Assembly (NCBI GenBank): GCA_964600895.1
Contig: CAZRKP010000003.1
Span: 122,416-186,415, forward strand
Source: an uncultured Victivallis sp.
GTDB taxonomy: Bacteria > Verrucomicrobiota > Lentisphaeria > Victivallales > GWF2-50-93
Length of the DNA: 64,000 nt
Direction of reading: 5' to 3'
Position 1 is the stretch's first letter. Each line of letters begins with the position of its first letter. The translations under genes were made by a program, and so were the position numbers. A model generated the notes under the pieces. That model did no database searches. It saw nothing but the letters and a program-made list of their open reading frames with translations, and was not told the DNA's origin. Positions 1,004 through 46,170 of this stretch are shown here, piece after piece.

Positions 1004-1173
1004 AATTCTATTAATATAAACCCATTATTGCACGAATCATACGAGAAATCCAAGAACAGCTCTTACGAGCTTAACTACCAGCAAATACAAAATTTCTATA
1101 CCAAGTCGTAGTTAACCCACCTACAGGCAAATTAATGCCATAAGGCATGTTTCAAGATTTGGAATTTGCCCAA

Positions 1174-2310: not shown

Positions 2311-2330
2311 TCCATCTAAATAATTTTATT

Positions 2331-2396
2331 GACAGGATAACAGGATTATCCAGATGAAATGAATTCATAAGATCATGAAAATCCTGTAATCCAGTC
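2331..2396. repeat. REP-like palindromic element, family A (GACAGGATAACAGGATT ... AATCCTGTAATCCAGTC)
   Basis: 17-bp arms, 15/17 complementary; second copy at 25415-25483. Confidence 0.75.
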
Positions 2397-2475
2397 TACA
2401 TATAAAGGGAACCTCTAAAATATACACTTCTGGCTTTTATATGGAAATACTGATAGCTTATACAATTGAAAGATA

Positions 2476-2520
2476 GTGTCCAAGTGTCAGAGTATCAAAG
2501 TGTCAGAGTATCAGAGTATT
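2476..2520 (+). repeat. Degenerate 8-bp tandem repeat (GTRTCMRA x5 + partial)
   Basis: gtgtccaa gtgtcaga gtatcaaa gtgtcaga gtatcaga gtatt, read directly. Confidence 0.8.
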
Positions 2521-2563
2521 ACGAACGTAGACATTACGCCATATCAATCAATTGAATTTTATC

Positions 2564-3526: not shown

Positions 3527-3579
3527 TCACAGCTGAGATACCTGTGCTACACTCCTCCGGAGTGCTATATTATTTATTC

Positions 3580-9244: not shown

Positions 9245-9265
9245 TAAAACTAAAATTCACAAGAA

Positions 9266-9308
9266 AACCACAGAGTTCTCAGAGGATATCTCTGTGTATT
9301 CTGTGGTT
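9266..9308. repeat. REP-like palindromic element, family B (AACCACAGA ... TCTGTGGTT)
   Basis: Perfect 9-bp outer arms plus inner CAGAG/CTCTG pair; related sequences at 10855-10875 and 29678-29809. Confidence 0.8.
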
Positions 9309-9338
9309 AATGGTTTTCTGAACTAAGAGGATGGTAAA

Positions 9339-10835: not shown

Positions 10836-10854
10836 TTAGATGACTGGGAATATT

Positions 10855-10875
10855 TCTCCGTGTTCTGTGGTGAAA
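10855..10875. repeat. Half copy of family B element (TCTCCGTGTTCTGTGGTGAAA)
   Basis: Resembles the right arm of the element at 9266-9308. Confidence 0.5.
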
Positions 10876-10933
10876 ATATTCTTCTTTAGTTTATTGTATC
10901 CCAAATCATTTTCTTTTTTTAGGATTTCAACAT

Positions 10934-22351: not shown

Positions 22352-22513
22352 TTATTCCTGTTTGGAAAAGGAATCCTTGCCAACTCCACATTCCGGACAG
22401 GTCCAGTCGTCCGGCAAATCCGCAAAAGCTGTTCCAGGGGCAACTCCATGATCAGGATCGCCTTTTGCAGGATCGTAGACCCAACCGCACGCATCGCACA
22501 CATATTTGTCCAT
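22352..22513 (-). CDS. rub: Rubredoxin (53 aa)
   Basis: Not in ORF track; I translated it: [53 protein letters not shown]; GGAGG RBS upstream. Confidence 0.96.
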
Positions 22514-22574
22514 AGAAACCTCCTACGTTTTTTAGTACTCAAATAATTTCCATCTTCGTAACGCCAATATTCCG

Positions 22575-23783
22575 TCACTGCTTCGATTTTGCTAGCAGTT
22601 TTTCACCGACAAGCTTACCGAGTTCGAAACATGCCTTCAGATCAGCTTCCGTCGGGACATATTTCGCCCTGTAGCCTTCGCTGACCATCTCGACATTCAT
22701 GGATTTCAGATATTCATTCAGCAGCTTTACAGCTTCCCCGCTCCAACCATAGGAGCCGAACGAGGCACCTATCATGTTCGTCGGGGACAATCCTTTGACA
22801 TAGGTCAGCACATCTGCCATTGTCGGGAAAATATTATTGTTGATGGTCGGTGAACCAACTATGATCGCGTTTGATCTCAATACCTCTGTCGCAACATCGC
22901 TCCTGTGGCTTACATTCATTGGGAGCAGCTTGAATTCCACTCCTGATTCCCTAAGCCCCTCACCGATTGTCTTCGCCATCATCGCTGTACTGTTCCACAT
23001 CGTATCATAAACGACAATCGCCCTCGGAACTGGCTTATGTTCAGCCCATTTCCCGTAGAGTCCTGCAATCTTTGCGAAATGAGAACGCCAGACAGGACCA
23101 TGGTCCGGAGCAACAAGCTTGATAGGAAGGTTCAACTCCTTGAGGGAGTCCAGGAGCTTGAGGATTAGGTTAGAGTAAGGCATCAGGATATTGCCGAAAT
23201 ATTTCTCGGCTTCCTCCTCCATGATCTCCCAGTTGTTCTCATCATCAAAGAGCCTGTTCACTGCAAGATGCATACCGAATCCGTCCTGTGAGAAGAGAAT
23301 CTGCTCCTCCTTAAGATAACTGACCATGCTGTCCGGCCAGTGAAGCATCTTCGTCTCAATGAAGCTAATGTTCATGTTTCCGAGCGAAATGCTGTCACCG
23401 GTCTTGACCGGAGTAATATTCGAACCAATTCTGAAGTGCGACTCCAAGGCCTTCTGCCCCATAACCGACGCAAAGACCTTTTCAGGCTTGATTATGTCGA
23501 TTATCTCAGGCAGGCAACCGGAATGATCCATTTCCGAATGGTTTGAAATTATGTAGTCGATGTCTTCCGGCTTCACAACAGAGGAGATCCTGGAAAGTAG
23601 CTCATCCCTGAAAGGCGCCTTCACAGTGTCGACAAGTGTGATCTTGTCGGCCATTATGAGATACGCATTGTAGGTCGTTCCCCTGCTCGTCTGGTAACCA
23701 TGGAAGTCACGGACAGTCCAATCGACCGCGCCGACCCACCATACCTTGTCGCTGATCCTGATAGCTTTCCCGATGCTGTTCAT
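22575..23783 (-). CDS. fprA: Flavodiiron protein (FprA; rubredoxin:O2/NO oxidoreductase)
   Basis: GTTYNAYL, NHSEMDHSG, HWPDSM, SQDGFGMH, APDHG, then flavodoxin domain YDTMWNST...FGSYGWSGEA. Confidence 0.95.
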   Translation of the reverse strand: MNSIGKAIRISDKVWWVGAVDWTVRDFHGYQTSRGTTYNAYLIMADKITLVDTVKAPFRDELLSRISSVVKPEDIDYIISNHSEMDHSGCLPEIIDIIKPEKVFASVMGQKALESHFRIGSNITPVKTGDSISLGNMNISFIETKMLHWPDSMVSYLKEEQILFSQDGFGMHLAVNRLFDDENNWEIMEEEAEKYFGNILMPYSNLILKLLDSLKELNLPIKLVAPDHGPVWRSHFAKIAGLYGKWAEHKPVPRAIVVYDTMWNSTAMMAKTIGEGLRESGVEFKLLPMNVSHRSDVATEVLRSNAIIVGSPTINNNIFPTMADVLTYVKGLSPTNMIGASFGSYGWSGEAVKLLNEYLKSMNVEMVSEGYRAKYVPTEADLKACFELGKLVGEKLLAKSKQ

Positions 23784-25488: not shown

Positions 25489-25866
25489 TCATGAGCATTT
25501 TCCACACTGACCTGTAAACTCAATCTTGTAACCTGAGACATCCTTGTTGAGCTTCCTGATCTCGCCCAGTGACTTGTCGAGGATGTCCGCTCCCTCAGGA
25601 TCAAAATCCAATATCCTTCCGCACTTGAGGCATCTCAGGTGATGGTGATGGCTGATGTCACCATCAAATCTCATCTGAGAACCGGCACACTCTATCTTCT
25701 GAACATGCCCTTCCAGTGACAACACTTCAAGATTCCTGTAGACTGACGCAATACTTATCTTGGGAGTTCTCTTCCTTATGTGCTCATAGAACTCGTCCGC
25801 TGTCGGATGAGTCTTGAGCTTTTTCAGCTCCCTTAAGATAGCCTTCCGCTGTCTTGTTAATCTCAA
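25489..25866 (-). CDS. perR: Fur-family regulator, PerR-like
   Basis: TRQR, HPTADE, SIASVYRNL, RFD..HHH, CLKC, CGKC. TTG 25866 has a GAGG RBS; ATG 25890 lies inside the operator. Confidence 0.85.
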   Translation of the reverse strand: MRLTRQRKAILRELKKLKTHPTADEFYEHIRKRTPKISIASVYRNLEVLSLEGHVQKIECAGSQMRFDGDISHHHHLRCLKCGRILDFDPEGADILDKSLGEIRKLNKDVSGYKIEFTGQCGKCS

Positions 25867-25878
25867 TTTAACCTCAAT

Positions 25879-25897
25879 AATAAGAATCATTCTTATT
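25879..25897. promoter_or_regulatory. Fur/PerR-type operator (perfect 9-1-9 palindrome AATAAGAAT-C-ATTCTTATT)
   Basis: Perfect inverted repeat directly upstream of the Fur-family gene; 9-1-9 AT-rich geometry is typical of Fur-family boxes. Confidence 0.8.
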
Positions 25898-26047
25898 TTT
25901 GATAAGCTATACTAATCGCAGTCCATGTCAAGCTTTATCATGAAATATTTCTGTTTTTAACGCCTCCAATGGCGTAAAAATTTGAAATTGACCACGCACG
26001 GACGAAATTACAATACTAACAGACACTTCATATGGGGAGCCTTTGAA

Positions 26048-26684: not shown

Positions 26685-27818
26685 ATGCTGGAATGCCCGA
26701 ACTGCAAAACCACAAGGCTGGTAAAGCTCCAGAACGAATACGGCTTTTTCTGGGGTTGTCCAAAGTGCGATGGACGTGCTGTAAATCTTAGCTTGCTCAG
26801 GAAGAAATTCTCCCATAAGTTCCTCGCGAATCTCTGGGGCATGGCTTATGAGCGCAAAGGTCCTTTCTCCAGACGATGCCCAATGTGCGGCAAGCATATG
26901 AACGAGATCTCCGCTGAGACTGGCACTCCAAAACTCGACGTATGCAAGGCATGCCAGTTCGTCTGGTTTGACCCGAAGGAATATGAGCAGATCCCGCTGG
27001 AGCCAATCCCACCTCCGGAGACTAAGCTGAAAGATCTGTTGCCACTGGAAGCAAGGGAAAAATTAGCCCTAAGAGAAGTGCAGAGGATCGAAGATGAGGC
27101 AAGGTCATCCGACAGCAATTTCGGAGATGCCCCCGATGAATCCTGGAAAAACATTCCAGCAATTTTCGGTCTTCCTGTGGAATATGAAAACAAATTGAAT
27201 CATCTGCCTATTATGACATGGCTCATCATCATCATGACCTGCATTATCAGCATCGGCACATTTGCCAATTCAAATCATTTTATTAGGATTTTCGGTTTTA
27301 TCCCCGCTCAACCCTTCAGGGACTGCGGACTTACCATGATCAGTTCCTTTTTCCTACATGCGGGCTGGTACCATCTTCTCGGGAACATGTATTTCCTCTA
27401 TATTTTTGGCGACAATGTAGAAGATATTCTCGGTAAATGGAAATTTCTGCTGCTTCTACTGTTATCGACACTGGCCGGAGATCTCCTCCATATGATGATA
27501 GGAGGGAAATCTGAGATTCCATGCATAGGAGCAAGTGGTGGTATTTCAGGAATAATAACATTCTATGCCCTTCAGTTTCCCGGGGCAAAACTTGGAATAC
27601 TTTTTCGTTTTGGCCATATGTTCCGCTGGATAAGTTTTCCTGCAGTAATCGGGCTAGTTCTATGGATATTGATGCAGGCGTATGGAGTCTGGCAGCAGCT
27701 CAATGGATTCTCAAACGTCTCCGCTCTCGCCCATCTTGGTGGTGCGGCGGTCGGATTCGCACTCTGGATCCCGTATGCGAGCTGGGGGATAGTTTCTGAA
27801 AAGGAAAAGGATTCCTAA
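26685..27818 (+). CDS. Rhomboid intramembrane serine protease with two N-terminal Zn-ribbon domains
   Basis: CPNC/CPKC and CPMC/CKAC ribbons; HAGWYHLLGNM, GASGG (catalytic Ser), AHLGG (catalytic His). Confidence 0.9.
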   Translation: MLECPNCKTTRLVKLQNEYGFFWGCPKCDGRAVNLSLLRKKFSHKFLANLWGMAYERKGPFSRRCPMCGKHMNEISAETGTPKLDVCKACQFVWFDPKEYEQIPLEPIPPPETKLKDLLPLEAREKLALREVQRIEDEARSSDSNFGDAPDESWKNIPAIFGLPVEYENKLNHLPIMTWLIIIMTCIISIGTFANSNHFIRIFGFIPAQPFRDCGLTMISSFFLHAGWYHLLGNMYFLYIFGDNVEDILGKWKFLLLLLLSTLAGDLLHMMIGGKSEIPCIGASGGISGIITFYALQFPGAKLGILFRFGHMFRWISFPAVIGLVLWILMQAYGVWQQLNGFSNVSALAHLGGAAVGFALWIPYASWGIVSEKEKDS

Positions 27819-33757: not shown

Positions 33758-34096
33758 TTGGAATCCGTAATTTTGAACAAGAAAATACCATATCTCGCTG
33801 TAAATCTCATTGCTCCCGGCGTCGGACAACTGTTGGCGAAAAAATGGATCCTGGGTTCTTTGATGCTTTGCGGATCGATCTTGTGCATCCTCTGGTTCAC
33901 ATGGGAGGCAGTCTATCCCATTTACAGGAACATGATGCTTATATTGAACGGTTATGATATGGATTACAATATTTTCAATGTCAGAAACCTGATCCTCGCG
34001 CCGGTGTTCCTGATCCTGATCTGGATCATAAGCTATGTGGAGCTCATGATCAGCAAGGATGACGATGCTGGCAGTTCAAAGCCCGATTTGAAGTAG
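33758..34096 (+). CDS. Hypothetical membrane protein
   Basis: PGVGQL motif and 2-3 TM segments; start uncertain. Confidence 0.6.
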   Translation: MESVILNKKIPYLAVNLIAPGVGQLLAKKWILGSLMLCGSILCILWFTWEAVYPIYRNMMLILNGYDMDYNIFNVRNLILAPVFLILIWIISYVELMISKDDDAGSSKPDLK

Positions 34097-34104
34097 CCCG
34101 TATT

Positions 34105-35070
34105 TCAAAAAAGAAGATCAATTATCAGCGGACGATGATCTGAACCTATTACATCTCCCACTCTCCTTCCGGACACTGAAACATCCGGAGAGATCAGGCA
34201 GTGATCTATGGGAATAAGCATGAGCGGATTAATTGTCGGCCACGTAGGCTGGATCCCAAATCCTTTCATTGAATTCCTCATCCCGGACTCTTTCAGGAAC
34301 TTCTTGAAATGAAGCGACCACGGCGTGATGTTCAGATCTCCCGCAAGGATCCTTATCCCATTCTCATCTTTCAGCACCTTCGAGAAATATGCCAGTTCCA
34401 TATTTCTTGTCCTGGAATATTCGCCGTTCACAGGTGGCAGGGCATGCACCGCCCAGAACTTGACAGTTTTACCGCGGATTCCGAACACCGCCTCAACGTA
34501 GGGAAGTTTGAATTCTCCCCACATTTTGATTTCACAGTTTTCTGGACTGATCCTGCTGAACAGCGCTATTCCAAAATTATCCGATTGTGGAAAAGATATC
34601 TTATATTCAAACTCCTTGGCAAGCTCTTCCAGATTACGCATCCATTCCTGATCAACCTCCTCGAGGATCAGGATGTCAGGCGCTTCCTTTTTCACGGCAG
34701 AGATCAGGGCAACGTAGTTTTTGTTGGCTGTATGGACATTCGCAAACATGAGCCTCAATATCGGATTTCCATCTGCTTCTGGAACTGATGGCTGCAGGTA
34801 TAGAGGAATTATCTCGAACAGGTTAGGTATGATGAAAATGGAGATGATGGTGGCAGTCCAGTATCTTTTCAGCAATGCCAGCAAGATGGCGGAGAACACA
34901 ATTACCAGGGCATACTGCGGCCTGAAATGCGAACAGAGGTCGAAGATCCAGAAATATCCTCCGAGATATCCTATGGAAGTCAGAAGTGATGCAAATATTC
35001 CAATTCCCGTGATTAGCGATATAAAGGAGACCTTTGTTGCAAGGACCTCCCTGATCCTACCTGCCATCAT
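34105..35070 (-). CDS. Membrane-anchored endonuclease/exonuclease/phosphatase (EEP, YafD-like) protein
   Basis: Three N-terminal TM; ANV, LEE, GDLN, PIDH, GSDHRP EEP motifs. Confidence 0.88.
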   Translation of the reverse strand: MMAGRIREVLATKVSFISLITGIGIFASLLTSIGYLGGYFWIFDLCSHFRPQYALVIVFSAILLALLKRYWTATIISIFIIPNLFEIIPLYLQPSVPEADGNPILRLMFANVHTANKNYVALISAVKKEAPDILILEEVDQEWMRNLEELAKEFEYKISFPQSDNFGIALFSRISPENCEIKMWGEFKLPYVEAVFGIRGKTVKFWAVHALPPVNGEYSRTRNMELAYFSKVLKDENGIRILAGDLNITPWSLHFKKFLKESGMRNSMKGFGIQPTWPTINPLMLIPIDHCLISPDVSVSGRRVGDVIGSDHRPLIIDLLF

Positions 35071-36101
35071 ATGACAACCCTGTTCCTGCCCTCCTCCTTG
35101 GCCTTGTAGAGATTCAAATCAGCATCATGGATGAGTTTCATGATATCCTGTTCCACCGATGAACTGATGAATCCGGAGGCCCCCCCTATGCTGACAGTGA
35201 CGGAGAAACTCATGGTGCTTCCGGTCTTTTCCTCCACATTGCTTCGGATCTTCTCACAGAGCGACACAATCGATTCAGGATCCTTGCAGTCGGCATAGAT
35301 TATGAACTCCTCGCCTCCATATCTTCCGATTATATCAGACTTGCGGATGCTTGAGCTGATTATAGAGGAGATGAACTTCAGGATTTCATCGCCCTTATGA
35401 TGCCCATACGTGTCGTTTATCTTCTTGAAATGATCGATGTCTATCATCAGGAAGCTAACCTTGAATTTCTTCCTTGATGCAAGGTATGCCACAGGATTGA
35501 CAGCGTTGAAGAACCCTCTCCGGTTGAGCAGTCCTGTCAGAATATCGCATGTATTTTCCTTGGCAAGGCGCCTGTTGTCCATCCAGAGAACCTCAAGCGT
35601 CTCTCCTAACATGTCGGCTTCAGAGATATTCTCCCCGTATTTCTTAAGACCTTCTATGAAATCTGCAATATGCCTGTCATATTCCTCCTCGATACTGTCA
35701 ACCCCTTCAAGGGTCCTGAATACGTGAAACATGGTCGCGAATTCGGGATTTATCATGAGGAATTCAAGCCGGTACGCAACTGGCAGGATCCGGAGGACAT
35801 CCGAGTAGTCTCCAATATCCTTGACCAGAAGAAGGACCTTCTCAAGCAACTTCTCGAATTTTTTCAATATGACCGCCGGGTCTTCAAATACATTTGGGAT
35901 CAGTTCTCTTTCGGCAAGCTTCTGGGCCCTGCTCCAAAATTCCACATGATCCCTTTCGTCCTTGGCAAGCCTGTTCCAGAACAGCTTCATTTTCTCATCG
36001 GAACAGGCGTTGGCCACCCTGTTATACAGCTGATAGGCCTGTGCATCTATCTTCAGACAGGTTTTTAAGATCTCTACGAGAAGCCTATTATTCTCTTCCA
36101 T
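35067..36101 (-). CDS. Diguanylate cyclase with N-terminal ferritin/rubrerythrin-like domain
   Basis: DILTGLLNRR, IDIDHFKKINDTYGH, RKSD I-site, RYGGEEF; N-terminal helical domain with DERDH. Confidence 0.88.
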   Translation of the reverse strand: MEENNRLLVEILKTCLKIDAQAYQLYNRVANACSDEKMKLFWNRLAKDERDHVEFWSRAQKLAERELIPNVFEDPAVILKKFEKLLEKVLLLVKDIGDYSDVLRILPVAYRLEFLMINPEFATMFHVFRTLEGVDSIEEEYDRHIADFIEGLKKYGENISEADMLGETLEVLWMDNRRLAKENTCDILTGLLNRRGFFNAVNPVAYLASRKKFKVSFLMIDIDHFKKINDTYGHHKGDEILKFISSIISSSIRKSDIIGRYGGEEFIIYADCKDPESIVSLCEKIRSNVEEKTGSTMSFSVTVSIGGASGFISSSVEQDIMKLIHDADLNLYKAKEEGRNRVVI

Positions 36102-36190
36102 ACATTGAATATTCCTATGAAAAAAGATATATTATATGTTTATATAAATTAGGCATTTAAGTTATTTTTTTCAATCTTTCAGGACAAGAT

Positions 36191-39100
36191 ATGCCCTTCA
36201 TTCGGAAAATAGGATTTATATGTCTGCTTTCGATAGTTGGTCTCGCGGCTGGCGCTGACATACTTGACGATATATTCGCCCGTTCTACAGATTCCCAGCG
36301 CAAACAGGCGGTAATCGATGCCAGAAACGGCAAGTATGACGAAGCTGTAAAAATCATCAAGAATGTGCTGGCTGAAACAAAAAACGCCCCTGACATCTTA
36401 TGCGACAGCATTGTCATTTTCAAATGGGCCGGCAAATACGAAGATGCATTGGACTCCTTCAGCAAAATCCCCAAGGACTACAAGATACCCGACGCGGTAC
36501 AGCTGGAAATGGCGGTCGTATATTATAAACTTGGAAAGCCGGCCGAAGCTGCACTTCTCTTTGAAAAATACCTGCCGAAAAACGAGAAGGACGTGAAACT
36601 CGTCGAAATGATGGTCCTGTCCTGTATTGATTCTGGAAATTCCAGCAAGGCGTTGGTTTATCTCGAAGATCGTTCAAAGTCTGAAAAGGAAATCCCCCAA
36701 TGGCTGAATGCCCTGATAATCAGGTCAAAGCATGGAAAGGCGGTAGAAACCGCCAGGGCCGGACGTCTCCAGGAGGCTATATCAAACCTCGGTGACCTGA
36801 TAACACAGACTGGAGACAGGAAGAGCATATATTACGATTATATTGTCATCCTCTCCTGGGATCGCCAGTATGAAGAAGCCATTAAGAAATATGCTGAGAT
36901 CTCGCAAAGGAATGACATTCCCGCCTATGCACTTCAATGCATCTTCAACTGTTATGATCAGCTGAAGGACAAGGAAGGAATGCTTGAGGTCGCCAAAAAA
37001 CTTGCCCTCTCGGCTCCATTGGATCAGAAAAACCTCCAGCTGATGCTCCAAAGCTGTGAACTTGCAAACAAACCTGAGGACGGTATAGCAACAGCAGAAG
37101 CCCTGATACGGAATTCACCTGATTCCAAGGAAACTGTGAATCCATTCCTGATGAAGCTGAAACTGATGCTGGCGGTCAAGCTTGCCAGGAACGGTGAACA
37201 TGCCAAATCTCTTGAAATCCTTGAAGGACTTCTGAAGGAAAATGAAAATGATGCTGCCATCATGTCCAACTATATTCTTGTGCTTTCTTGGGCGGGAAAG
37301 AAGGAGGAAGCTAAAAAGATTTACGATGAGTTTTTCAAGGACAGGAAGCCCCCCGAATATCTCGTCAAGGAAATGACTGGACGCGCACCTGAAAAGACGG
37401 TGTTGACTATAGAACCAAATGAATCCACCGCTCTAAAGGAATCTCCTGCGGACAAAACTGCGGTTCAGGACACTGCCGACACTGTTTTAAAATATCTTGA
37501 TTCTGGGAAGATCGACAAGGCCATAGATGAAGTTGCAGGAAAACTCTCAAACCTCAACGAGAAGAACAGGGATTACCTCAACAAGTCGATGTCAATGATC
37601 CGGGAAAAGGCCATACAGGCGGGAAGGAACGGAAAATGCGATGAGGCTATCGTCATAATCGACAAACTCCTTGGTCTTAACTATGAAAAGCCCTCCCTTC
37701 TCGCCGACAAAATCATCATAATGGTATGGGCTGAGGACTATGCCAGTGCGATTGATCTTTATTCCAGGTTCAAAGATACTTATGCTCCCAATGCTCATTT
37801 GCTCAATGCTGTGGGCACGGCTTACAGGAGGACCGGAAAATATCACGAGGCCATTGAATGCTATGAAAAATCCCTGGCATTGGATTCCGACAATCCAGAA
37901 TCAATAAAAGGCAAGGTCTTTTCCTTGGTGGGTGCCGGACAAAATGCCGAAGCGGAGACTTTCATTAAAAAGGAATCGGAAAAACTGCAGCCAACTCCAA
38001 AATGGTTGATGCTGCTTCCGTGTGAAGCCTGCATTGTTGGTGGAAGATATGATGATGCGGGACGCCTGCTCAAGGAATACCTTGGAAAAGATCCTGATGA
38101 TAAAGAAGCAAGGAAAATGCTGGTTGAAGTTCGGATCCATCAGAAGACAGGTCTTGACGAGGCGATGAAGATCACGGAAGATCTCATAAAGGACGATTCT
38201 TCAAATCAAGACCTGTTGTTCCTAAAGGTCACTCTTCTCCAACTTTCAAGGGAATATATTGCAGCATACGACTTCAACGAGAGGATCCTTTCCATCAACA
38301 AGTTCTACAGGCCATCGATAAATGCAAAGTATCACATCCTTCTTGACATGAAGGCAGCAATCCTCGCGGACCAGATGCTCAGGGAATCCGGCGACAATGT
38401 GTCATATGCCGTGAAGAAAAGGCTGATGGGCGATCTCGCCGCCGAACAGCTGTCATGGAAGGATTACAGGAAGGCCATACAGGTGATCGATGAGAATATC
38501 CAGACATATGACAAGTTCAAGGCCATTCCCGAAGCCGCAGAAGACGCCGAGACCCTGAAGCTGAGAGCCCGTTTTGACAGGATACTCGCCCTTTTCCAGG
38601 GCGAAAAGATGGCGGAGATAATAAAAGAATACGAATCATTGAAGGCAGATGGCATTGATGTGCCTTCCTGGCTCAGGCAGAACGTGGCCGCAGCCTATCT
38701 CTACTGCCGTCATCCCGATACCGCCCTCGCCATGTATAGGGAAATCCACGAGGAGCTCAAAAAAGACGGCATTGACAGGTATCCCGACAACTACATCGTC
38801 CTCCAGGGAATTTATTCATGTCTCATAGAGCTGGAAGACCAGAGCGCAGCATATGATATCCTCGAAGTCCTTGAGAAGGAGACACCGGCATACGCAAGGC
38901 CTACAGGTGTCTATACTGAAAATTCAGAGAAGCTGGATTTGGGGGTGGAAAGGGGATGGTGGTACATCTACAACGACCAGCTTCCTTATGCCGAGGAATA
39001 TCTTTCCGAACTCATTGAAAAGGCCCCCTACAATTCCAACATAAGGACTGCCATTGGCTACCTGCATTACTACCGTGGATGGTCGCGGCTGGCCCTCGAG

Positions 39101-40156
39101 GACTTCCAGATATCCACCGAGCTCGATCCCAACGACAAGTCGGCCCAGATAGGATTGGCCTACACCCTCAACGAAAACGATGAATGGGAGAAGGCAAGAA
39201 CTGTTGCCGCTGAACTCGCAAAGAAATATCCCGAGGATCTGGATGTAAAGGAGCTCCAGAGATCCTTCGAACTGCAGGAGAAGAGAACACTCACGGTCGA
39301 CAGCAACTATTCCAACGCCGGCAACTTCTCAGACGGATCCGGTGTCACGATGCGTCTGGAACAGCCGATATATCCTGAGAGGAAGATCTATGCTGAAACG
39401 CTATGGCTTTACACTTCACAGCCCAAGGATTCCAACCAGGAAGGAAAAAGAAGGAACATATTCCGTGGAGCCATAGGATTCGATTGGCGGCTCAGCAATG
39501 GCCTCTACATATTTGGAGAGGCTTCGCTGGACTATCACGCCAGAGAGCCTGGTTTCATGGCTGGTCTCAGATGGAAGCCGACAGATCATCTGACCCTGAG
39601 CGGCTTCTACAATTCATACACCCTCAACATGCCTCCCAAGGCCCTGCTCTTCGGAAAGAAGGGTCAGGAGGCCAATATCTCCGCAGAATACCGCTTCAGC
39701 GAGGATCTTATCGTGAATGCCGGATTTTCAAATGTATGGGTGTCTGACGGGAACATAAACCAGACCTATAGCTGGAAGATTGACAAAGGTATCTGGTCTT
39801 CGGCCTACTGGAAGTTCAGGATTGCTGTTGAAGGATCCACCACCACCAATACCAAGATCGACACAGACTATTATTCTCCCAGATACTATACCTCTGTATA
39901 TTTCGTCCCGATGGTTGAACATCTCTGGTACAGGCGCTATGAGACATCAATCGTAGACAGGCTTTTCCTGGGTATCGGCCCGCATTGGGAGAAGGATTAC
40001 ACATGCAAGGCACAATATTACCTGCGTTATGAGCAGGAATATCAGCTTACTGATTATTTCGGATTCAAGATTGGCGGAAAGATAGGCAAGGAAAGATACG
40101 GGGATGACAACCCATGCGCATGGGGATTCTATGGAAGCCTGATATTTAAGTTTTAA
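36191..40156 (+). CDS. pgaA: PNAG export porin PgaA, extended TPR version (1321 aa)
   Basis: Signal peptide; repeated ARxG..D-x-I-x-x-x-x-W modules; DRILAL..EY, W..Q.VAAAYL; C-terminal aromatic beta-barrel ending in F; first gene of pgaBCD. Confidence 0.85.
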   Translation: MPFIRKIGFICLLSIVGLAAGADILDDIFARSTDSQRKQAVIDARNGKYDEAVKIIKNVLAETKNAPDILCDSIVIFKWAGKYEDALDSFSKIPKDYKIPDAVQLEMAVVYYKLGKPAEAALLFEKYLPKNEKDVKLVEMMVLSCIDSGNSSKALVYLEDRSKSEKEIPQWLNALIIRSKHGKAVETARAGRLQEAISNLGDLITQTGDRKSIYYDYIVILSWDRQYEEAIKKYAEISQRNDIPAYALQCIFNCYDQLKDKEGMLEVAKKLALSAPLDQKNLQLMLQSCELANKPEDGIATAEALIRNSPDSKETVNPFLMKLKLMLAVKLARNGEHAKSLEILEGLLKENENDAAIMSNYILVLSWAGKKEEAKKIYDEFFKDRKPPEYLVKEMTGRAPEKTVLTIEPNESTALKESPADKTAVQDTADTVLKYLDSGKIDKAIDEVAGKLSNLNEKNRDYLNKSMSMIREKAIQAGRNGKCDEAIVIIDKLLGLNYEKPSLLADKIIIMVWAEDYASAIDLYSRFKDTYAPNAHLLNAVGTAYRRTGKYHEAIECYEKSLALDSDNPESIKGKVFSLVGAGQNAEAETFIKKESEKLQPTPKWLMLLPCEACIVGGRYDDAGRLLKEYLGKDPDDKEARKMLVEVRIHQKTGLDEAMKITEDLIKDDSSNQDLLFLKVTLLQLSREYIAAYDFNERILSINKFYRPSINAKYHILLDMKAAILADQMLRESGDNVSYAVKKRLMGDLAAEQLSWKDYRKAIQVIDENIQTYDKFKAIPEAAEDAETLKLRARFDRILALFQGEKMAEIIKEYESLKADGIDVPSWLRQNVAAAYLYCRHPDTALAMYREIHEELKKDGIDRYPDNYIVLQGIYSCLIELEDQSAAYDILEVLEKETPAYARPTGVYTENSEKLDLGVERGWWYIYNDQLPYAEEYLSELIEKAPYNSNIRTAIGYLHYYRGWSRLALEDFQISTELDPNDKSAQIGLAYTLNENDEWEKARTVAAELAKKYPEDLDVKELQRSFELQEKRTLTVDSNYSNAGNFSDGSGVTMRLEQPIYPERKIYAETLWLYTSQPKDSNQEGKRRNIFRGAIGFDWRLSNGLYIFGEASLDYHAREPGFMAGLRWKPTDHLTLSGFYNSYTLNMPPKALLFGKKGQEANISAEYRFSEDLIVNAGFSNVWVSDGNINQTYSWKIDKGIWSSAYWKFRIAVEGSTTTNTKIDTDYYSPRYYTSVYFVPMVEHLWYRRYETSIVDRLFLGIGPHWEKDYTCKAQYYLRYEQEYQLTDYFGFKIGGKIGKERYGDDNPCAWGFYGSLIFKF

Positions 40157-40167
40157 GGGGACATATA

Positions 40168-42156
40168 ATGAGAAAATTTGCGATAATCACAATTTTACTT
40201 CTGTGCCTTCCGGTGATGGCTCAGAATCTTTCCATGTTCTCCGGAGGCGACTTCAGAGGTAGCAATCCCATTGACATCAGCAAAGGATTCCCTCCAAATT
40301 CCTTCCTGGTTCTATGCTACCATGATATTCCATTCAAAATTGCAGATGACAAGGATGCCTATGCCGTGGAGCTCGAATCTTTCGTGAAACAGCTTGAATA
40401 CCTCAAATCCGAGGGATGCAGTTTCATAAGCGCTGACGACATCCTCAAGGCCAAGGTCGGGGAGAAGAAGCTTCCGGAAAAGGCGGTGCTGCTTTCCTTC
40501 GACGACGCATACGACACTTTCTACAGGAATGTCTTTCCACTGCTCAAGCTTTACAAATGTCCGGCCGTGCTCGCAGTAGTGACAAGCTGGATAGACGCCC
40601 CGCCGGATGATCCGGAATACAACAAGAAATTCATGACCTGGGAACAGTTGCGTGAAGTCGCGTCCTCTGGGTTTGTAAAAATTGCCAGCCACAGCCATGC
40701 CCAGCACAAGGGAGTTCTTATGAACCCCCTTGGAAGCATGGCTTCCGCCATACAGACCAGGATATATGATCCCGCAGGTAGGAAATATGAGACCGACCAG
40801 GAATACATCGGACGACTGCGCGATGATTTCAGCAGGTCGTTCTTGATTATAAAGGAAAGGACCGGGGTTGCGCCGGAATCCATCGTCTGGCCTTATGGAA
40901 GATATAACTATGCTGCAGTTCAAGAGGCACAGAAAGCAGGCTTCAAGATGATGTTCACACTCGACGATGGATTTGGAACTCCTGAAAGGATTGATGCCAT
41001 ACCCAGATACATGATAATGAATAATCCGACCATAGAGAATTTCGCGGTCATGTTCAAGAAGAGTTTCATGAACATCGCCAGGCTCCGTGTCATCCATGCC
41101 GATCTGGACTCAGTCTATGATCCGGATCCGGAAAAGCAGAATAAGAATATCGACGCCTTCATAGAGAGGATCTACAGGATTAAGCCTTCCGCCGTATACC
41201 TCCAGGCGTTCTGCGACGATAAGGGTGATGGAAACGTATCATCCGTATATTTCAACAACAGGTTGCTGCCGATGAAGGCCGATATCTTCAGCAGGATAGC
41301 CCGTTCATTGTTCGTAAGAGGGATATCCGTCTATGCCTGGATGCCTGCGATGACCTATGTCCTGCCGGATGAAAAGGAGAACGAAAGGCTGCGGATCTGT
41401 GAGTTCCGCGATGGAAAGATCCAGCCTTCCACCTCATGGTATAAGCGCCTTTCCCCGTTCAACGAGGATGCATGCCGGAAGATAGAGATGATCTTCGAGG
41501 ATCTATCCATCTACTGCGATTTCGATGGAATAATCTTCCAGGACGACGCATACATGAATGACTACGAGGATTTCAGCCCTGAGGCTTTGAAGGAATACGT
41601 CAAGATCTCCGGTGATGCCAATATTCCTTTCAGCAAGCTGAGCAACGAGCAAAAGGATAAATGGACAGATGTCAAGACTGAAAGAATAATGTCTCTCACG
41701 GACAGGATCAAGAAAAAAGTACTTTACTACCGGCCTGAGATCCGTTTCGCCAGGACCCTTTATGCCCCGGTACTTCTAAAGCCTGAAAGCGAGGAATGGT
41801 TCTGTCAGAATTATGAGAAGACCTTGAAACGTTATGATTATGCTGTCATAATGGCATATCCGAAGATGGAAGATGTGTCGGTTTTCAGCGAGGACTCATG
41901 GCTCAGGTCGCTTGTCCAAAAGGCATCCAAATTCCCGAACGGGCTTGACAGTACTGTCTTCAAGACACAGGCATTCGACTGGAAAAAGGACAAATGGATC
42001 AGTTCCTCCACGGTCAACCAATGGCTCAGGATCCTTGTGGCGGCAGGTGCATATCACATTGCATATTATCCTGATGATTATATCGGCAACCGTCCTGATT
42101 TGAAGACCATATCTGACATGATATCTTCAAGGTATTTCCCATATGAAAACAAATAG
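40168..42156 (+). CDS. pgaB: PNAG N-deacetylase / GH153 PgaB
   Basis: VLCYHD, LSFDDAY, ASHSHAQH (CE4); DLDSVYDPD, FQDDAY..DYEDFS, YAVIMAYP, AYYPDD (GH153). Confidence 0.94.
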   Translation: MRKFAIITILLLCLPVMAQNLSMFSGGDFRGSNPIDISKGFPPNSFLVLCYHDIPFKIADDKDAYAVELESFVKQLEYLKSEGCSFISADDILKAKVGEKKLPEKAVLLSFDDAYDTFYRNVFPLLKLYKCPAVLAVVTSWIDAPPDDPEYNKKFMTWEQLREVASSGFVKIASHSHAQHKGVLMNPLGSMASAIQTRIYDPAGRKYETDQEYIGRLRDDFSRSFLIIKERTGVAPESIVWPYGRYNYAAVQEAQKAGFKMMFTLDDGFGTPERIDAIPRYMIMNNPTIENFAVMFKKSFMNIARLRVIHADLDSVYDPDPEKQNKNIDAFIERIYRIKPSAVYLQAFCDDKGDGNVSSVYFNNRLLPMKADIFSRIARSLFVRGISVYAWMPAMTYVLPDEKENERLRICEFRDGKIQPSTSWYKRLSPFNEDACRKIEMIFEDLSIYCDFDGIIFQDDAYMNDYEDFSPEALKEYVKISGDANIPFSKLSNEQKDKWTDVKTERIMSLTDRIKKKVLYYRPEIRFARTLYAPVLLKPESEEWFCQNYEKTLKRYDYAVIMAYPKMEDVSVFSEDSWLRSLVQKASKFPNGLDSTVFKTQAFDWKKDKWISSSTVNQWLRILVAAGAYHIAYYPDDYIGNRPDLKTISDMISSRYFPYENK

Positions 42157-42170
42157 ATGAAGGACAGATA

Positions 42171-43400
42171 ATGGATATCGTCTACAATTTCGTATTCTAC
42201 TATCCCCTTCTTATGGGTTTCATCTGGATGTTCGGTTCCATACTATTCCGCATATACAGGGACACCTATTTGATCAAGGAACCTGATATCCCTGGAAATC
42301 CGATGGTTTCCATACTGGTCCCCTGCCACAATGAGGAGGAATGCATCGAGGATACGATTCGCTATCTCCAGCTGCAGTCCTATCGTAACTTTGAGATCAT
42401 CGCAATAGACGATGCAAGCAAGGACAAGACTGGAGAGATACTCATGAACCTTCAGAAGGAGTTCAGTAATCTCCGCGTGATCACCCTCAAAAGCAACCAG
42501 GGAAAGGGAACTGGATTGACCATGGCTGCAATGGTAAGCAAGGGTGAATTCCTGGTTGGTATTGATGCTGATGCACTTCTTGATCCTGATGCGGTAAAAT
42601 GGATAATGTGGCATTTTGCAAATTTCCCCAGAGTCGGTGCCGTCACAGGAAATCCCAAGGTAAGGAACAGGACCACTCTTCTTGCGAAGATACAGGTCGG
42701 CGAATATTCCACCATCATCGGAATGATAAAGAGGACGCAGAGGATCCTCGGCAAGATATATACCGTGTCTGGTGTTGTCGCGGCATTCAGGAAGAAAGCC
42801 CTGCTTGACGTTGGCTGGTGGTCCAACAACATGGTAACGGAAGACATTGATGTCAGCTGGAAGCTGCAGATTGACAAATGGGACATCCGCTATGAGGCTC
42901 GTGCACTCTGCTGGATACTTGTTCCAGAAACCCTCAAAGGAATCTTCAAGCAGCGCCTACGCTGGTCTCAAGGAGGGAACGAGGTGCTTATTAAATATTT
43001 CCCAAAGATACTCGATTGGAAAAGCCGCAGGATCTGGCCACTTTACATTGAGTATGCCGCAAGCGTACTCTGGTGCTATCTCCTCCTGCTTACATTTATA
43101 CTGTCAGTTCTTTATCTTCTGAATGTCCCGCTTCCTCAGGATCTTGTCGTGAGAAATGTCCTTTCTCCGGGCTGGACCGGAGTCCTTCTCGCCGCGGTCT
43201 GCATGCTCCAGCTTACGGTCGGGATAATATTTGATGCCAGATATGACAAAACCTTGCTGAAGATAATACCATGGATGATCTGGTATCCCGCCATTTACTG
43301 GGTAATCACCGCAATAACAACCATAATTGCATTCCCGAAGGCCCTGCTTAAGAAGAGGAATACTCTTGCGGTCTGGGAAAGCCCGGACAGGGGGTTGTGA
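42171..43400 (+). CDS. pgaC: PNAG synthase PgaC (GT2)
   Basis: PCHNEE, IDDAS, GIDADA, VTEDIDVSW, QRLRW, AVWESPDRG. Confidence 0.96.
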   Translation: MDIVYNFVFYYPLLMGFIWMFGSILFRIYRDTYLIKEPDIPGNPMVSILVPCHNEEECIEDTIRYLQLQSYRNFEIIAIDDASKDKTGEILMNLQKEFSNLRVITLKSNQGKGTGLTMAAMVSKGEFLVGIDADALLDPDAVKWIMWHFANFPRVGAVTGNPKVRNRTTLLAKIQVGEYSTIIGMIKRTQRILGKIYTVSGVVAAFRKKALLDVGWWSNNMVTEDIDVSWKLQIDKWDIRYEARALCWILVPETLKGIFKQRLRWSQGGNEVLIKYFPKILDWKSRRIWPLYIEYAASVLWCYLLLLTFILSVLYLLNVPLPQDLVVRNVLSPGWTGVLLAAVCMLQLTVGIIFDARYDKTLLKIIPWMIWYPAIYWVITAITTIIAFPKALLKKRNTLAVWESPDRGL

Positions 43401-43927
43401 TGAAAGAAGAAAAGAATTTTGACAAACCTATCATCATTGAAAGACCCAGTCTGGTCTCCAAGACACGGCATTATACGGAATGGACCATCCACATCATAGG
43501 TTGGATCCTCTGGATGCTCCTCATACGCCCGCTTATCATTTTGCTTTTGTGGTATCTCACCTACAGGTTCTTCAAATATGAGATGTTCACCCTCGAGGGG
43601 ATAGACAATCCGATATATTTCGGAATTGGAGCAGGAATACTTGTATCAATCTATCTGATCATGTTCGTCTGGAGCCGGTATAATGCATGGAGGTTCAAGG
43701 GCAAGGACAGACGCAAATCGCGCGGTGATGCAACACCGGAGGCAATAGCGGAATTCTATAAGATGAAGACGGAAGACATTTCCGCCCTCCAGAGTTCCAG
43801 CAAGATTGACATTTATTTCCTCGACAACGAACTCATAGAAATTGATAATGGCAGGGAAAACAGGATCAAGGCGTTATACGCACCGCTTAACCAGTCAAAA
43901 CACCATGACAAGAATTTTAAAATCTAA
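43397..43927 (+). CDS. pgaD: PNAG biosynthesis protein PgaD
   Basis: PIII, two TM helices, WSRYN..RF.G.DRR; overlaps the pgaC stop. Confidence 0.88.
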   Translation: MMKEEKNFDKPIIIERPSLVSKTRHYTEWTIHIIGWILWMLLIRPLIILLLWYLTYRFFKYEMFTLEGIDNPIYFGIGAGILVSIYLIMFVWSRYNAWRFKGKDRRKSRGDATPEAIAEFYKMKTEDISALQSSSKIDIYFLDNELIEIDNGRENRIKALYAPLNQSKHHDKNFKI

Positions 43928-43928
43928 T

Positions 43929-44507
43929 ATGTCTCCTGTAATTGTGGGAATGAGCATAAGCGGAATATTCCGCATGCTAGATCCATATACCAGGAAGCAT
44001 AGCCGGCGTATAAGCCGCATGGCTGTGATCATTGCAAGAAAAGTGGGGGTCTGCGACAAGGATGAACTGCGGAAAATAAGGATAGGCTGCCTATACCACG
44101 ACATAGGAAAACTTTTTATACCCTTGGAGGTCCTTAACAAGTCTGAACCACTCAGCAGAAGGGAATATTCCATGATAAAGAAACATCCCGTGTTCGGCTT
44201 GAGGATCATAAAGCGCTTTCCTGAACTTCATGATATCTCAAAAATAATCCTGCAGCACCATGAATCATGGGATGGGACCGGGTATCCACATGGCCTCAAA
44301 GCCGGGAAGACCTGTCTTGGAGCAAGGATCTGCAGTCTGGCAGATTCTTTCGATGCAATGCGGACGGACAGGACGTATAGCGGCAAAAAGCCCTTCCTCT
44401 TGGTAGTCAAAGAAATAAACAGATGTTCAGGGAAGAGATATGATCCTTCTGTCGTAGAGGCCTTCAACAAATGTGCCAGAAAACTTGACATGCTTGCAAG
44501 GGGATAA
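43929..44507 (+). CDS. Stand-alone HD-GYP c-di-GMP phosphodiesterase
   Basis: HSRR, YHDIGK, KHP, HHESWDGTGYP, ADSFDAM; ATG 43929 directly after the pgaD stop. Confidence 0.9.
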   Translation: MSPVIVGMSISGIFRMLDPYTRKHSRRISRMAVIIARKVGVCDKDELRKIRIGCLYHDIGKLFIPLEVLNKSEPLSRREYSMIKKHPVFGLRIIKRFPELHDISKIILQHHESWDGTGYPHGLKAGKTCLGARICSLADSFDAMRTDRTYSGKKPFLLVVKEINRCSGKRYDPSVVEAFNKCARKLDMLARG

Positions 44508-44511
44508 TAAG

Positions 44512-46170
44512 ATGAAAAGATTCAAAATATTCTTGCAAATCCTGATAACAGTTTGCTCCCTCAATGCATTAGCTCTCTCTCCTGAATTGGACAATTCGCT
44601 TACACCTGCTGAAAAAGAATGGATTAAAAAGCATCCTGCCATCCGCCTGGGAGTCGACAATTCCAGCTATTTCAGGGGCATGATTGATGATAACGGAAAT
44701 TATACCGGCATGGGTGCCGACTACGTCCGTCTTCTTGAAAAAAAGACAGGGCTTTTATTCAAGATCGTTCTTTGCGAAAACTGGAGCAATGTCATTGCAA
44801 AGGCCAAAGCCAAGGAAATTGATGTCATTCCGATAGTAGCAAAGACTCCTGAAAGGGAAAAATTCCTGAAGTTTACCATTCCATTCATTGACATGCCGAA
44901 TGTAATAATAACCTCCAGGAAAAGATCAGATATTACAAGTATTAACGATTTACGGGGCAAAACAGCTTCTGTAAACAAGGGATATGTCATACAGGAATGG
45001 CTTTCGGAAAACCATCCTGAAATAAAACTGGTATTCAGGACAAGTTCGGAGGAAGGTCTGAAGGCTGTCGCCGTTGGGGAAGTCGATTCATATGTCGGCG
45101 ATCTCTCTACAGCCGTATATGCCATCAACCATCTTTACCTGTCAGATCTAAAAATAGCGGCAAACGTTCCTTTCAATGTGAAATGGGGAATGGCGGTACG
45201 CGAGGACTGGCCGGAACTTGTAGCAATCCTCGACAAGGCCATCGGTTCTACCAATCCTGAAGAACATGCTGCAATAAAACGAAAATGGACCACTCTGTAC
45301 AGCGGAATTGATTATAAAACATTTCTCCTGATCATCATCCCCCTCATCATTGTTTTTATATTGCTGACAATGCTATATTCAAATATTCGACTGAAGAAAG
45401 AGGTTCTCCAGAGGAAAATTTCCGAAGCTAGACTTGAAAGCCTCCAGAAGATATCCCACTACAAGGCAAAGAGTATCCAGGACCTGCTGGATTATGCGCT
45501 CGGAGAAGCTATTTCCCTGACCAGCAGTAAGATCGGCTACATATACCATTATAATGAGGAAAGAGAAGAGTTTGTCCTGAACACGTGGTCGAAAGATGTC
45601 ATGAAGGAATGTACCATCGCCAATCCACAGAACATATACAAGTTAGACAAGACTGGAATATGGGGTGAGGCAGTACGCCAGAGGAAACCGATCATGCTGA
45701 ACAATTTCGAAGCACCCCATCCCCTGAAGAAAGGCTATCCGGAAGGTCATGCGAAATTATATCGGTTCATGACTATACCGGTTTTTGTCGAAGACAAGAT
45801 AGTTGCTGTCGCCGGCGTGGCGAATAAGGAGAAAGATTATGATGAGGCCGACGTAAGACAGCTTTCCATGCTTATGGATTCAGTATGGAAATATGTACAT
45901 AAGAAAGAATTGGAATCTGAAAAGGAAAAACTTATAAACGACCTCCAGAAGGCATTGTCAGAAGTCAAGACTCTCAGTGGGCTTCTGCCTATCTGCGCCA
46001 ACTGCAAAAAAATACGCGATGACAAAGGATACTGGGATATCCTTGAAAGTTATTTCATGAAGCATTCAGACACCAAATTCTCACATGGAATATGCCCGGA
46101 CTGCATGAAGAAGCTTTATCCCGAATATGCGGCAGATCTTGAAGACAAAGGACCATCTCAAAATCCATGA
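44512..46170 (+). CDS. Membrane sensor: periplasmic PBP domain - TM - GAF - small Cys4 domain
   Basis: Signal peptide; PBPb-like region (GMGADY, IDVIP, VAVGEVDSYVGD); one TM; GAF (GIWGEAVRQRKP, GYPEGH); C-terminal CANC...HGICPDC; no H-box, ATPase or GGDEF. Confidence 0.8.
   Translation: MKRFKIFLQILITVCSLNALALSPELDNSLTPAEKEWIKKHPAIRLGVDNSSYFRGMIDDNGNYTGMGADYVRLLEKKTGLLFKIVLCENWSNVIAKAKAKEIDVIPIVAKTPEREKFLKFTIPFIDMPNVIITSRKRSDITSINDLRGKTASVNKGYVIQEWLSENHPEIKLVFRTSSEEGLKAVAVGEVDSYVGDLSTAVYAINHLYLSDLKIAANVPFNVKWGMAVREDWPELVAILDKAIGSTNPEEHAAIKRKWTTLYSGIDYKTFLLIIIPLIIVFILLTMLYSNIRLKKEVLQRKISEARLESLQKISHYKAKSIQDLLDYALGEAISLTSSKIGYIYHYNEEREEFVLNTWSKDVMKECTIANPQNIYKLDKTGIWGEAVRQRKPIMLNNFEAPHPLKKGYPEGHAKLYRFMTIPVFVEDKIVAVAGVANKEKDYDEADVRQLSMLMDSVWKYVHKKELESEKEKLINDLQKALSEVKTLSGLLPICANCKKIRDDKGYWDILESYFMKHSDTKFSHGICPDCMKKLYPEYAADLEDKGPSQNP

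Follow-up and report, generated by a model that had tools for sequence, protein, structure and literature searches.

We have analyzed a stretch of 64,000 nucleotides (nt) from an uncultured Victivallis sp. (GenBank assembly GCA_964600895.1, contig CAZRKP010000003.1, positions 122,416 to 186,415; the whole stretch is referred to as the window), with a focus on its pgaABCD genes for the synthesis and export of poly-beta-1,6-N-acetylglucosamine (PNAG) and on the genes directly beside them. The reading that we favour, at a probability of roughly 0.6, is that a Victivallales bacterium has equipped its operon for making and exporting PNAG with dedicated enzymes for cyclic di-GMP (c-di-GMP), which work by the mechanism outlined below. 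These enzymes are a diguanylate cyclase (DGC) with a ferritin-like N-terminal domain, encoded divergently from pgaA, and a predicted phosphodiesterase of the HD-GYP type, encoded directly behind pgaD. As judged from the gene order in related loci, both stay linked to pga across rearrangement. The last gene of the series encodes a sensor that ends in a four-cysteine (Cys4) domain. The features are as follows (coordinates in the window, lengths in amino acids (aa) or base pairs).

35067-36101, minus strand: DGC, 344 aa; ferritin-like four-helix domain (aa 1-178) and GGDEF domain (1.3e-40)
36102-36190, no strand: divergent AT-rich intergenic region between DGC and pgaA, 89 bp; read from the sequence, presumed shared promoter region
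36191-40156, plus strand: pgaA, outer-membrane PNAG export porin, 1321 aa (TIGR03939 and PgaA_barrel)
40168-42156, plus strand: pgaB, PNAG N-deacetylase / glycoside hydrolase lipoprotein (TIGR03938, Polysacc_deac_1 and GHL13)
42171-43400, plus strand: pgaC, PNAG synthase of family GT2 (TIGR03937)
43397-43927, plus strand: pgaD, small inner-membrane partner of PgaC (Pfam PgaD 1.6e-21, TIGR03940)
43929-44507, plus strand: predicted stand-alone HD-GYP phosphodiesterase, 192 aa (HD_5 2e-31)
44512-46170, plus strand: sensor, 552 aa, with a solute-binding protein (SBP) domain, transmembrane (TM) segment, GAF and Cys4 domain (SBP_bac_3 3e-20, GAF_2 8e-27)

The pga locus

The six plus-strand genes from pgaA to the sensor gene are closely packed, with successive gaps of 11, 14, -4, 1 and 4 nt, the negative value being the 4-nt overlap of pgaC and pgaD. 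The stop codon of pgaD (TAA, 43925-43927) is followed 1 nt later by the ATG of the HD-GYP gene at 43929. The public gene call of the HD-GYP protein (P0271) begins at Met8, which gives a protein of 185 aa and a gap of 22 nt; with these two candidate starts the distance between pgaD and the HD-GYP gene is either 1 or 22 nt. The ATG of the sensor gene (44512) lies 4 nt past the TAA of the HD-GYP gene, and a convergent trpF ends 9 bp beyond the end of the sensor gene at 46170. The gene content, coordinates and spacing given in an earlier note on this DNA, which a model had made from the letters alone, match the map of open reading frames (ORFs) base for base. A scan for consensus promoters and terminators returned sites that were no more numerous than in shuffled sequence, and it therefore says nothing on transcription.

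The claim of a complete pgaABCD was borne out by the curated NCBIfam equivalog models, the cut-offs of which were passed by all four Pga proteins, encoded in the order A-B-C-D. PgaA scored 482 bits against TIGR03939 (cut-off 367; aa 618-1303), with a PgaA_barrel match of 7.8e-23 and a TPR region; PgaB scored 684 bits against TIGR03938 (cut-off 322), with both the deacetylase (Polysacc_deac_1) and the GH13-like (GHL13) part present; PgaC scored 556 bits against TIGR03937 (cut-off 422) and PgaD 64 bits against TIGR03940 (cut-off 31). PgaC is 47% identical to its E. coli counterpart. On these matches pgaABCD is complete, and PNAG as its product and the binding of c-di-GMP by PgaCD are predicted. 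In E. coli, c-di-GMP binds PgaC and PgaD together and activates synthesis, which makes the pair an established receptor (reviewed in PMC8461298), as the earlier note had stated; the c-di-GMP site in E. coli PgaCD is without structural definition (PMC8461298).

PgaA is about 500 aa longer than the E. coli protein (1321 versus 807 aa). The additional N-terminal part of around 600 aa (aa 1-617; 36191-38040) consists of internally repetitive TPR repeats, and the length of the protein varies in relatives (~1190 aa in L001, ~1340 aa in L002; L numbers denote the loci that were compared).

Related loci

The four nearest genomic loci derive from metagenome-assembled genomes (MAGs) of Lentisphaerae or Victivallales, with a PgaC that is 82-89% identical to that of the window, in line with the non-proteobacterial host suspected in the earlier note. 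Victivallales is a member of the Lentisphaerota, within the Planctomycetes-Verrucomicrobia-Chlamydiae (PVC) group; a link between PNAG or pga and the Lentisphaerota was not found in the literature searched. In L001, L002 (identical to L016) and L003 the DGC gene is divergent from pga as in the window. The divergent spacer beside the DGC gene measures ~87-120 bp in L001, L002 and L109 and ~425 bp in L003, and in these four loci it contains short conserved blocks beside each of the two start codons.

The association of pga with the two enzymes was also found in other surroundings. In L004 (PgaC 82% identical) pgaBCD is followed by the HD-GYP gene within a different downstream neighbourhood. The more distant L017 (PgaC 65%) has pgaABCD, then a same-strand gene for a ferritin-like DGC directly after pgaD, and then a gene for a REC-HD-GYP protein. 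This DGC is 34% identical to that of the window across both domains, the N-terminal domain included. L017 has no sensor gene, and its HD-GYP protein has a REC domain of its own. Thus, an HD-GYP gene after pgaD was encountered in the window, L001, L002, L004 and L017, in three different genomic contexts.

A search for the closest HD-GYP homologues outside pga loci led to L099 and L100/L101, where the HD-GYP and sensor genes lie between fabH/small ORF and trpF and pga is missing. The spacing of the two genes, 1-4 nt, is the same range in the window, L001, L002, L099 and L100. Both arrangements carry the scar of a deletion. In L099 all that remains of pgaD is its last ~30 codons ('...IGYDDGRNLKIKALYTPFNLAVRHEKYLEI*', 1731-1820); a stop codon precedes them, and an intact HD-GYP gene follows directly. 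In L100 the last 62 codons of the DGC gene (codons 281-342, minus strand, 3817-4002) are joined to the HD-GYP gene from codon 56 onward. The HD dyad has been lost in L100/L101, which read 'YTGK' instead of 'HDIGK', and the chimeric ORF of 219 aa (P0277; L100 3817-4413, L101 3856-4452) is annotated as an HD-domain phosphohydrolase without having the dyad. The sensor ORF was retained in both deletions with its Cys4 tail intact. As the end points differ, the deletions are independent, and the two scars imply that the ancestor carried the full cassette. In both cases the DGC gene was taken together with pga.

A further rearrangement was found in L109, a close relative with the same backbone (FabH 86%, PlsX 77%, TGT 83%). 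Here (1-11038; also in L105 and L106) the fabH/small-ORF slot is occupied by an orthologue of the DGC gene (60%) and a tandem paralogue (48%). They are divergent from an operon that encodes a GH114 protein, TPR proteins of 1208 and 656 aa, a DUF2194/DUF2334 protein and a GAF_3 protein of 453 aa. NCBIfam returned no Pel family names for this operon, so that we call it pel-like on the basis of its domain content. To judge from these genes, the exopolysaccharide operon is replaced here beside a conserved cyclase, and the PelD-sized GAF_3 gene makes a second c-di-GMP-controlled system possible at this site.

Taken together, the gene orders show that the cassette is built of modules that have been acquired, exchanged or lost independently of each other, one formed by the DGC gene and an exopolysaccharide operon and the other by the HD-GYP and sensor genes. 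The survival of the latter pair without pga in L099 and the missing sensor in L004 and L017 argue for a modular cassette and not for one indivisible circuit. The DGC gene is tied to exopolysaccharide operons, since it was kept in the rearranged L017, was lost together with pga in L099 and L100 and faces the pel-like operon in L109. The self-contained circuit proposed in the earlier note therefore holds up in part: writer and eraser are linked to pga to a degree that common descent by itself does not explain (L017, L004 and the two co-deletions), the receptor is an established one, and the unity of the whole does not survive the comparison with L099, L004, L017 and L109.

Survey of pga loci and the E. 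coli arrangement

The metagenome survey comprised 26 clusters of pga loci with a PgaC at least 45% identical. Nineteen clusters offered at least 1.5 kb behind the operon, and only 3 of them, all of the Victivallales type, have an HD-GYP gene there. In the 9 that offered at least 1.5 kb in front of pgaA, a GGDEF gene was limited to loci of the Victivallales or E. coli type. A Pfam scan of the 95 flanking ORFs of the other 23 clusters gave some two-component genes and no GGDEF, EAL or HD domain among the recurrent matches. Likewise, a published survey of pga operons names no cyclase or phosphodiesterase in them (PMC7112194).

The arrangement in E. coli K-12, dgcT (ycdT)-pgaABCD, is similar in having a GGDEF gene divergent from pgaA and a complete pgaABCD in the same order, and this arrangement was also found in the metagenome loci L049, L050 and L062. 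However, DgcT and the DGC of the window match in their GGDEF domains only (1e-30), and a phmmer search with the N-terminal domain of the latter against the dgcT ORF returned nothing. Moreover, 587 bp separate the cyclase gene from pgaA in E. coli, as compared with 89 bp in the window, and pgaD is followed in E. coli by phoH, without a phosphodiesterase or sensor gene, whereas the window has both. In E. coli the main cyclase that feeds Pga is the unlinked DgcZ (PMC10211494). A cyclase divergent from pgaA is thus already known, and it is the kind of cyclase and the HD-GYP gene inside the operon that are unusual here; the unfamiliarity that the earlier note had ascribed to the whole combination is confined to these two elements.

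The cyclase and its N-terminal domain

The GGDEF domain of the DGC (PF00990, 1.3e-40) has an intact active site (RYGGEEF) and, five residues upstream, an RxxD I-site (RKSD). The GGEEF motif and I-site are conserved in the orthologues and in 128 members of the family, and the protein looks catalytically competent by these motifs.

No Pfam family matched aa 1-178 at normal thresholds. As a single sequence, the N-terminal domain matched the N-terminal domain of PDB entry 3EZU (7.7e-18) and, weakly, the families Rubrerythrin, MiaE and Ferritin_2. A word-indexed protein search with the domain gave no match, and an exhaustive HMMER search of representatives was used in its place. This search uncovered a family of 384 clusters at 50% identity, nearly all of about 345 aa and of the same two-domain architecture. 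A profile built from 22 members matched 3EZU at 5e-38 and then ferritin-like diiron-carboxylate proteins at 2e-6 to 1e-3, with TM1526 (2e-6) and 2FZF (3e-6), as well as encapsulated ferritins, ferritins and the designed Due Ferri diiron bundles. The ferritin-like label of the earlier note is thereby supported at the level of sequence profiles. A single-sequence AF2 model of the DGC had a pLDDT of 40, too poor to be used.

The canonical ligand pattern of ferritin-like proteins is E...ExxH...E...ExxH. Across 128 members of the cyclase family, the best conserved residues of the N-terminal domain are D/E19, E49, H52, W56, E113, Y141 and H144, from which a putative ligand pattern of D/E19, E49xxH52, E113 and Y141xxH144 can be read, with Tyr at the place of the expected last Glu. 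The domain may bind metal and act as a sensor.

The closest solved relative, 3EZU, is a structural-genomics 'GGDEF domain protein' of Geobacter sulfurreducens that shares the two-domain architecture, a homologous N-terminal domain and nearly the length (342 versus 344 aa); a link to an exopolysaccharide operon is not known for it, and a function is not given in those parts of the literature that were searched. A functional model for the ferritin-like domain is offered by Bhr-DGC of Vibrio cholerae, in which, according to the accounts consulted, a non-haem diiron bundle regulates the GGDEF domain (Schaller et al. 2012, as cited in PMC10101095; reviewed in PMC9388753). In Bhr-DGC this four-helix bundle is fused N-terminally to GGDEF, and the ferritin-like domain of the window DGC has the corresponding position. 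However, the His-rich hemerythrin site of Bhr-DGC differs from the carboxylate/His site of ferritin-like proteins, the folds belong to other families without a sequence relationship, and Bhr-DGC, unlike the DGC of the window, is not known to lie next to pga.

In both informative contexts of unrelated family members, L102 (673-2275) and L103 (6324-9576)/L104, the cyclase gene adjoins hemerythrin genes. These encode stand-alone hemerythrins and a fusion of a methyl-accepting chemotaxis protein and hemerythrin (MCP-hemerythrin), and they come from unrelated metagenomes. By analogy, these neighbours and the precedent of Bhr-DGC provide circumstantial evidence for a theme of O2, iron or redox.

The HD-GYP protein

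The HD-GYP protein is a bare HD-GYP domain that lacks any sensory part. Among solved structures its closest relative is the active c-di-GMP phosphodiesterase PmGH of Persephonella marina (PDB 4MCW, 3e-29), for which eight metal ligands have been defined (PMC4159591). Seven of the eight, as well as the catalytic pair D18/K61 (equivalent to D183/K225 of PmGH), are present in the window protein. Conserved among the orthologues are H24, H57-D58, K61, H86, H110-H111, D139 and HHExxDGxGYP; the HD dyad and HHExxDGxGYP are shared with PmGH. The remaining ligand, E185 of PmGH, is a Tyr. Proteins with Tyr or Phe at this position were grouped by Bellini et al. as the Y/F subgroup, for which a binuclear centre was predicted (PMC4159591). 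The window protein is therefore assigned to this subgroup, with a predicted binuclear rather than the trinuclear centre of PmGH. A second difference is that PmGH has its own GAF domain, whereas in the window a GAF domain belongs to the product of the next gene, the sensor. All motifs of the class are present, and activity as a c-di-GMP phosphodiesterase is predicted.

Control of pga-dependent biofilm by an HD-GYP protein has a parallel in Xanthomonas oryzae pv. oryzicola, where RpfG (REC-HD-GYP) is described as affecting exopolysaccharide synthesis and pga-dependent biofilm (PMC3609779). The protein of L017 shares its REC-HD-GYP architecture. In the description cited RpfG is unlinked to pga, whereas the HD-GYP gene of the window lies inside the operon and its product has no REC domain.

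The sensor and its Cys4 domain

The sensor consists of a signal/TM segment, a periplasmic SBP_bac_3 domain, a TM segment, a cytoplasmic GAF_2 domain, a coiled coil and the C-terminal Cys4 domain. A domain scan revealed no HisKA, HATPase, GGDEF, EAL or HTH domain. The named models nearest to the SBP domain are the periplasmic part of EvgS (over aa 29-321 only) and amino-acid-binding proteins; as HisKA/DHp and HATPase_c are missing, the protein is not a sensor histidine kinase of the BvgS/EvgS type.

The Cys4 domain comprises the last 60 aa, in the C-terminal part of the sensor at 45940-46170, with a CxxC-x29-CxxC spacing and the motif LPICxxCKKIRDDKGYW...FSHGICPxC. It has at least 602 homologues in the database, of ~60-75% identity and from various phyla. 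Its carriers include proteins named response regulator (REC), PAS, GAF and HAMP, with the Cys4 domain at their end, and it also occurs in stand-alone proteins of ~100 aa (among P0001-P0120). In an alignment of 60 sequences the four cysteines were invariant, together with K36, R39, D41, G43, W45, E49, F60 and H62. Sequence searches of Pfam, NCBIfam and PDB returned no match (noise only in PDB and Pfam), a Foldseek comparison of a model (pLDDT 84) with PDB gave nothing below E=2, and no publication turned up in a full-text literature search for the motif (CKKIRD and variants). Cys4 is a widespread unnamed domain that probably forms the output of the sensor, and the description of the sensor as an output orphan in the earlier note does not strictly hold.

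The orthologues of the sensor in three relatives are longer, with 768-804 aa (L002 12234-14645, L099 2402-4708, L100 4421-6739). L002 has two GAF stretches versus one in the window and L001, and repeated GAF matches were found in L099.

Proposed mechanism and alternatives

The following mechanism would connect the different parts of the locus. The ferritin-like domain would hold a site for one or two metals, formed by D19, E49xxH52, E113 and Y141xxH144, which would report O2, redox state or iron and set the activity of the GGEEF site, while the RxxD I-site would cap the output of the cyclase. The c-di-GMP made in this way would stabilise and activate PgaC-PgaD, as in E. coli, and PNAG would be exported via PgaB and PgaA. 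The HD-GYP protein, made from the transcript of the synthase, would hydrolyse c-di-GMP and thereby provide a threshold or a negative feedback. With the HD-GYP gene on the pga transcript, the synthase would be active only once the output of the cyclase exceeds a threshold set in proportion to the expression of the operon. As it has no input domain of its own, the HD-GYP protein is probably controlled by the sensor of the adjacent gene. The sensor would read an amino-acid-like ligand in the periplasm via SBP and a cytoplasmic ligand via GAF, and would act through its Cys4 tail. This last step is suggested by a complementary distribution: a stand-alone HD-GYP with a sensor in the clade of the window versus a REC-HD-GYP without a sensor in L017. 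The sensing of redox or iron, the negative feedback and the coupling of sensor and phosphodiesterase are accordingly put forward as what the locus may do, and the linkage of both enzymes to pga as what its relatives have in common.

Several observations weigh against this proposal. Collinearity of L001-L003 with the window extends through the entire ~20 kb, so that their synteny by itself proves little; we have rejected it as proof of a functional linkage. In L099 the HD-GYP and sensor genes are both intact in their original place although pga and DGC are gone, and L100 has kept the sensor beside a broken HD-GYP; either these leftovers serve more than PNAG production or their decay is still to come. 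In L004 the stand-alone HD-GYP gene is not accompanied by a sensor gene, and the genomic contexts of three small Cys4 proteins contained no HD-GYP gene and no recurrent partner. Both weaken the case for a coupling of the sensor to the HD-GYP protein, and a general Cys4-HD-GYP coupling is unsupported in this small sample. In the cyclase, the ligand pattern is of the ferritin type with the departure to Tyr from the canonical last Glu, and 3EZU, the only solved member of the family, carries Gln in place of E113 and Tyr in place of H144 and may therefore lack a metal site. Finally, the second-best solved relative of the HD-GYP protein is V-cGAP3 (5Z7C), a phosphodiesterase specific for 3'3'-cGAMP, so that the substrate of the window protein is deduced from its context and not from its sequence.

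Some of these observations fit an alternative that we consider somewhat unlikely, in which HD-GYP and sensor form an autonomous signalling module with cell-wide targets, perhaps expressed by read-through from pga, and the operon has a functional tie to the cyclase alone. The intact pair that stayed in place in L099 after the loss of DGC and pga speaks for such autonomy, as do the sensor retained in L100 and the pga loci without a sensor, L004 and L017. However, the HD-GYP gene is found within a few bases of pgaD in three genomic contexts, the distant L017 among them, homologues of at least 55% identity were found only at this type of locus, and the deletion in L100 destroyed the HD-GYP gene along with pga. 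Moreover, the leftover genes may persist simply because little time has passed since the deletions.

An improbable explanation is that the linkage is merely historical, the DGC and HD-GYP proteins serving the global c-di-GMP pool and their position near pga having no regulatory meaning. The closest relatives are indeed collinear over the whole region, and GGDEF and HD-GYP proteins are numerous and common in bacteria in general. Nevertheless, the linkage was kept in L017 despite a changed gene order, the DGC gene was deleted with pga twice with different end points, and in L109 it is paired with another exopolysaccharide operon that includes the PelD-sized GAF_3 gene. In addition, such neighbours are missing from the other 22 clusters of the survey (the 23 non-Victivallales clusters minus the E. 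coli type), as judged on those with enough flank. It is highly improbable that the HD-GYP protein is no c-di-GMP hydrolase, and either cleaves 3'3'-cGAMP or acts as a binding partner or 'trigger' protein via its GYP loop. Its relation to the cGAMP-specific V-cGAP3 and the protein-protein roles described for the HD-GYP protein RpfG (PMC4159591) would be compatible with this. The conservation of seven of the eight PmGH metal ligands and of the D/K catalytic pair argues against it, and so do its neighbours, a GGDEF cyclase and a c-di-GMP-dependent synthase. A cGAMP synthase was not seen among the cassette's own domains, a scope that makes this a weak argument.

In a more far-reaching interpretation, Cys4 would be an output domain of a new type that acts on the stand-alone HD-GYP protein by direct contact and, jointly, the ferritin-like domain would be a new di-metal input of cyclases for O2, redox or iron. 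This joint reading we deem unlikely. If it were true, sensor and HD-GYP protein would constitute a 'split' sensor-phosphodiesterase, equivalent to the REC-HD-GYP fusion of L017, and a cyclase would have been handed between c-di-GMP-dependent exopolysaccharide machines (from Pga to Pel-like) at a fixed chromosomal slot.

It is well known that c-di-GMP controls exopolysaccharide synthases, whereas it is debated how one synthase can be served specifically in the presence of many cyclases and phosphodiesterases ('local signalling'). The locus constitutes a compact natural test case outside the Proteobacteria, in which ~11 kb unite writer, eraser and receptor with a protein that may regulate the eraser. 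For comparison there are natural variants: the reordered L017, the sensor-less L004, the pga-deleted L099 and L100 and the pel-like replacement in L109. In addition, the locus gives an initial clue to the function of two orphan domains, the ferritin-like domain of the 3EZU type and the Cys4 tail.

Genomic setting

The flanks of the cassette are made up of housekeeping genes, with plsX, fabH and a small ORF upstream and trpF, coaX, a MerR-family gene and ribF downstream. One further gene directly adjoins the cyclase gene:

34105-35070, minus strand: membrane-anchored protein of the endonuclease/exonuclease/phosphatase (EEP) family (Pfam Exo_endo_phos, E=1e-22)

The start of the EEP gene overlaps the stop of the DGC gene by 4 nt. 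A homologue was not found in L001-L004, L017, L099-L101 or L109; missing from every relative examined, the gene is specific to the window and was rejected as a part of the conserved system, to which it probably does not belong. The small ORF (112 aa, 33758-34096, plus strand) has no Pfam family and is present with 46-66% identity in all relatives, including those without pga. The slot between this ORF and the DGC gene is variable: it is empty in L001-L003 and is occupied by the DGC paralogue in L109 and by the EEP gene in the window.

At a distance of 12 kb upstream of the cassette are genes for a rubredoxin, a flavodiiron protein (ODP and flavodoxin domains), a regulator of the Fur family and a rhomboid protease that has a zinc ribbon at its N-terminus. 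The presence of rubredoxin, flavodiiron protein and Fur-family regulator in the window suggests an anaerobe. The set for the detoxification of O2 and NO, which is typical of anaerobes, is located at 22355-23783 (minus), 25492-25911 (minus) and 26685-27818 (plus).

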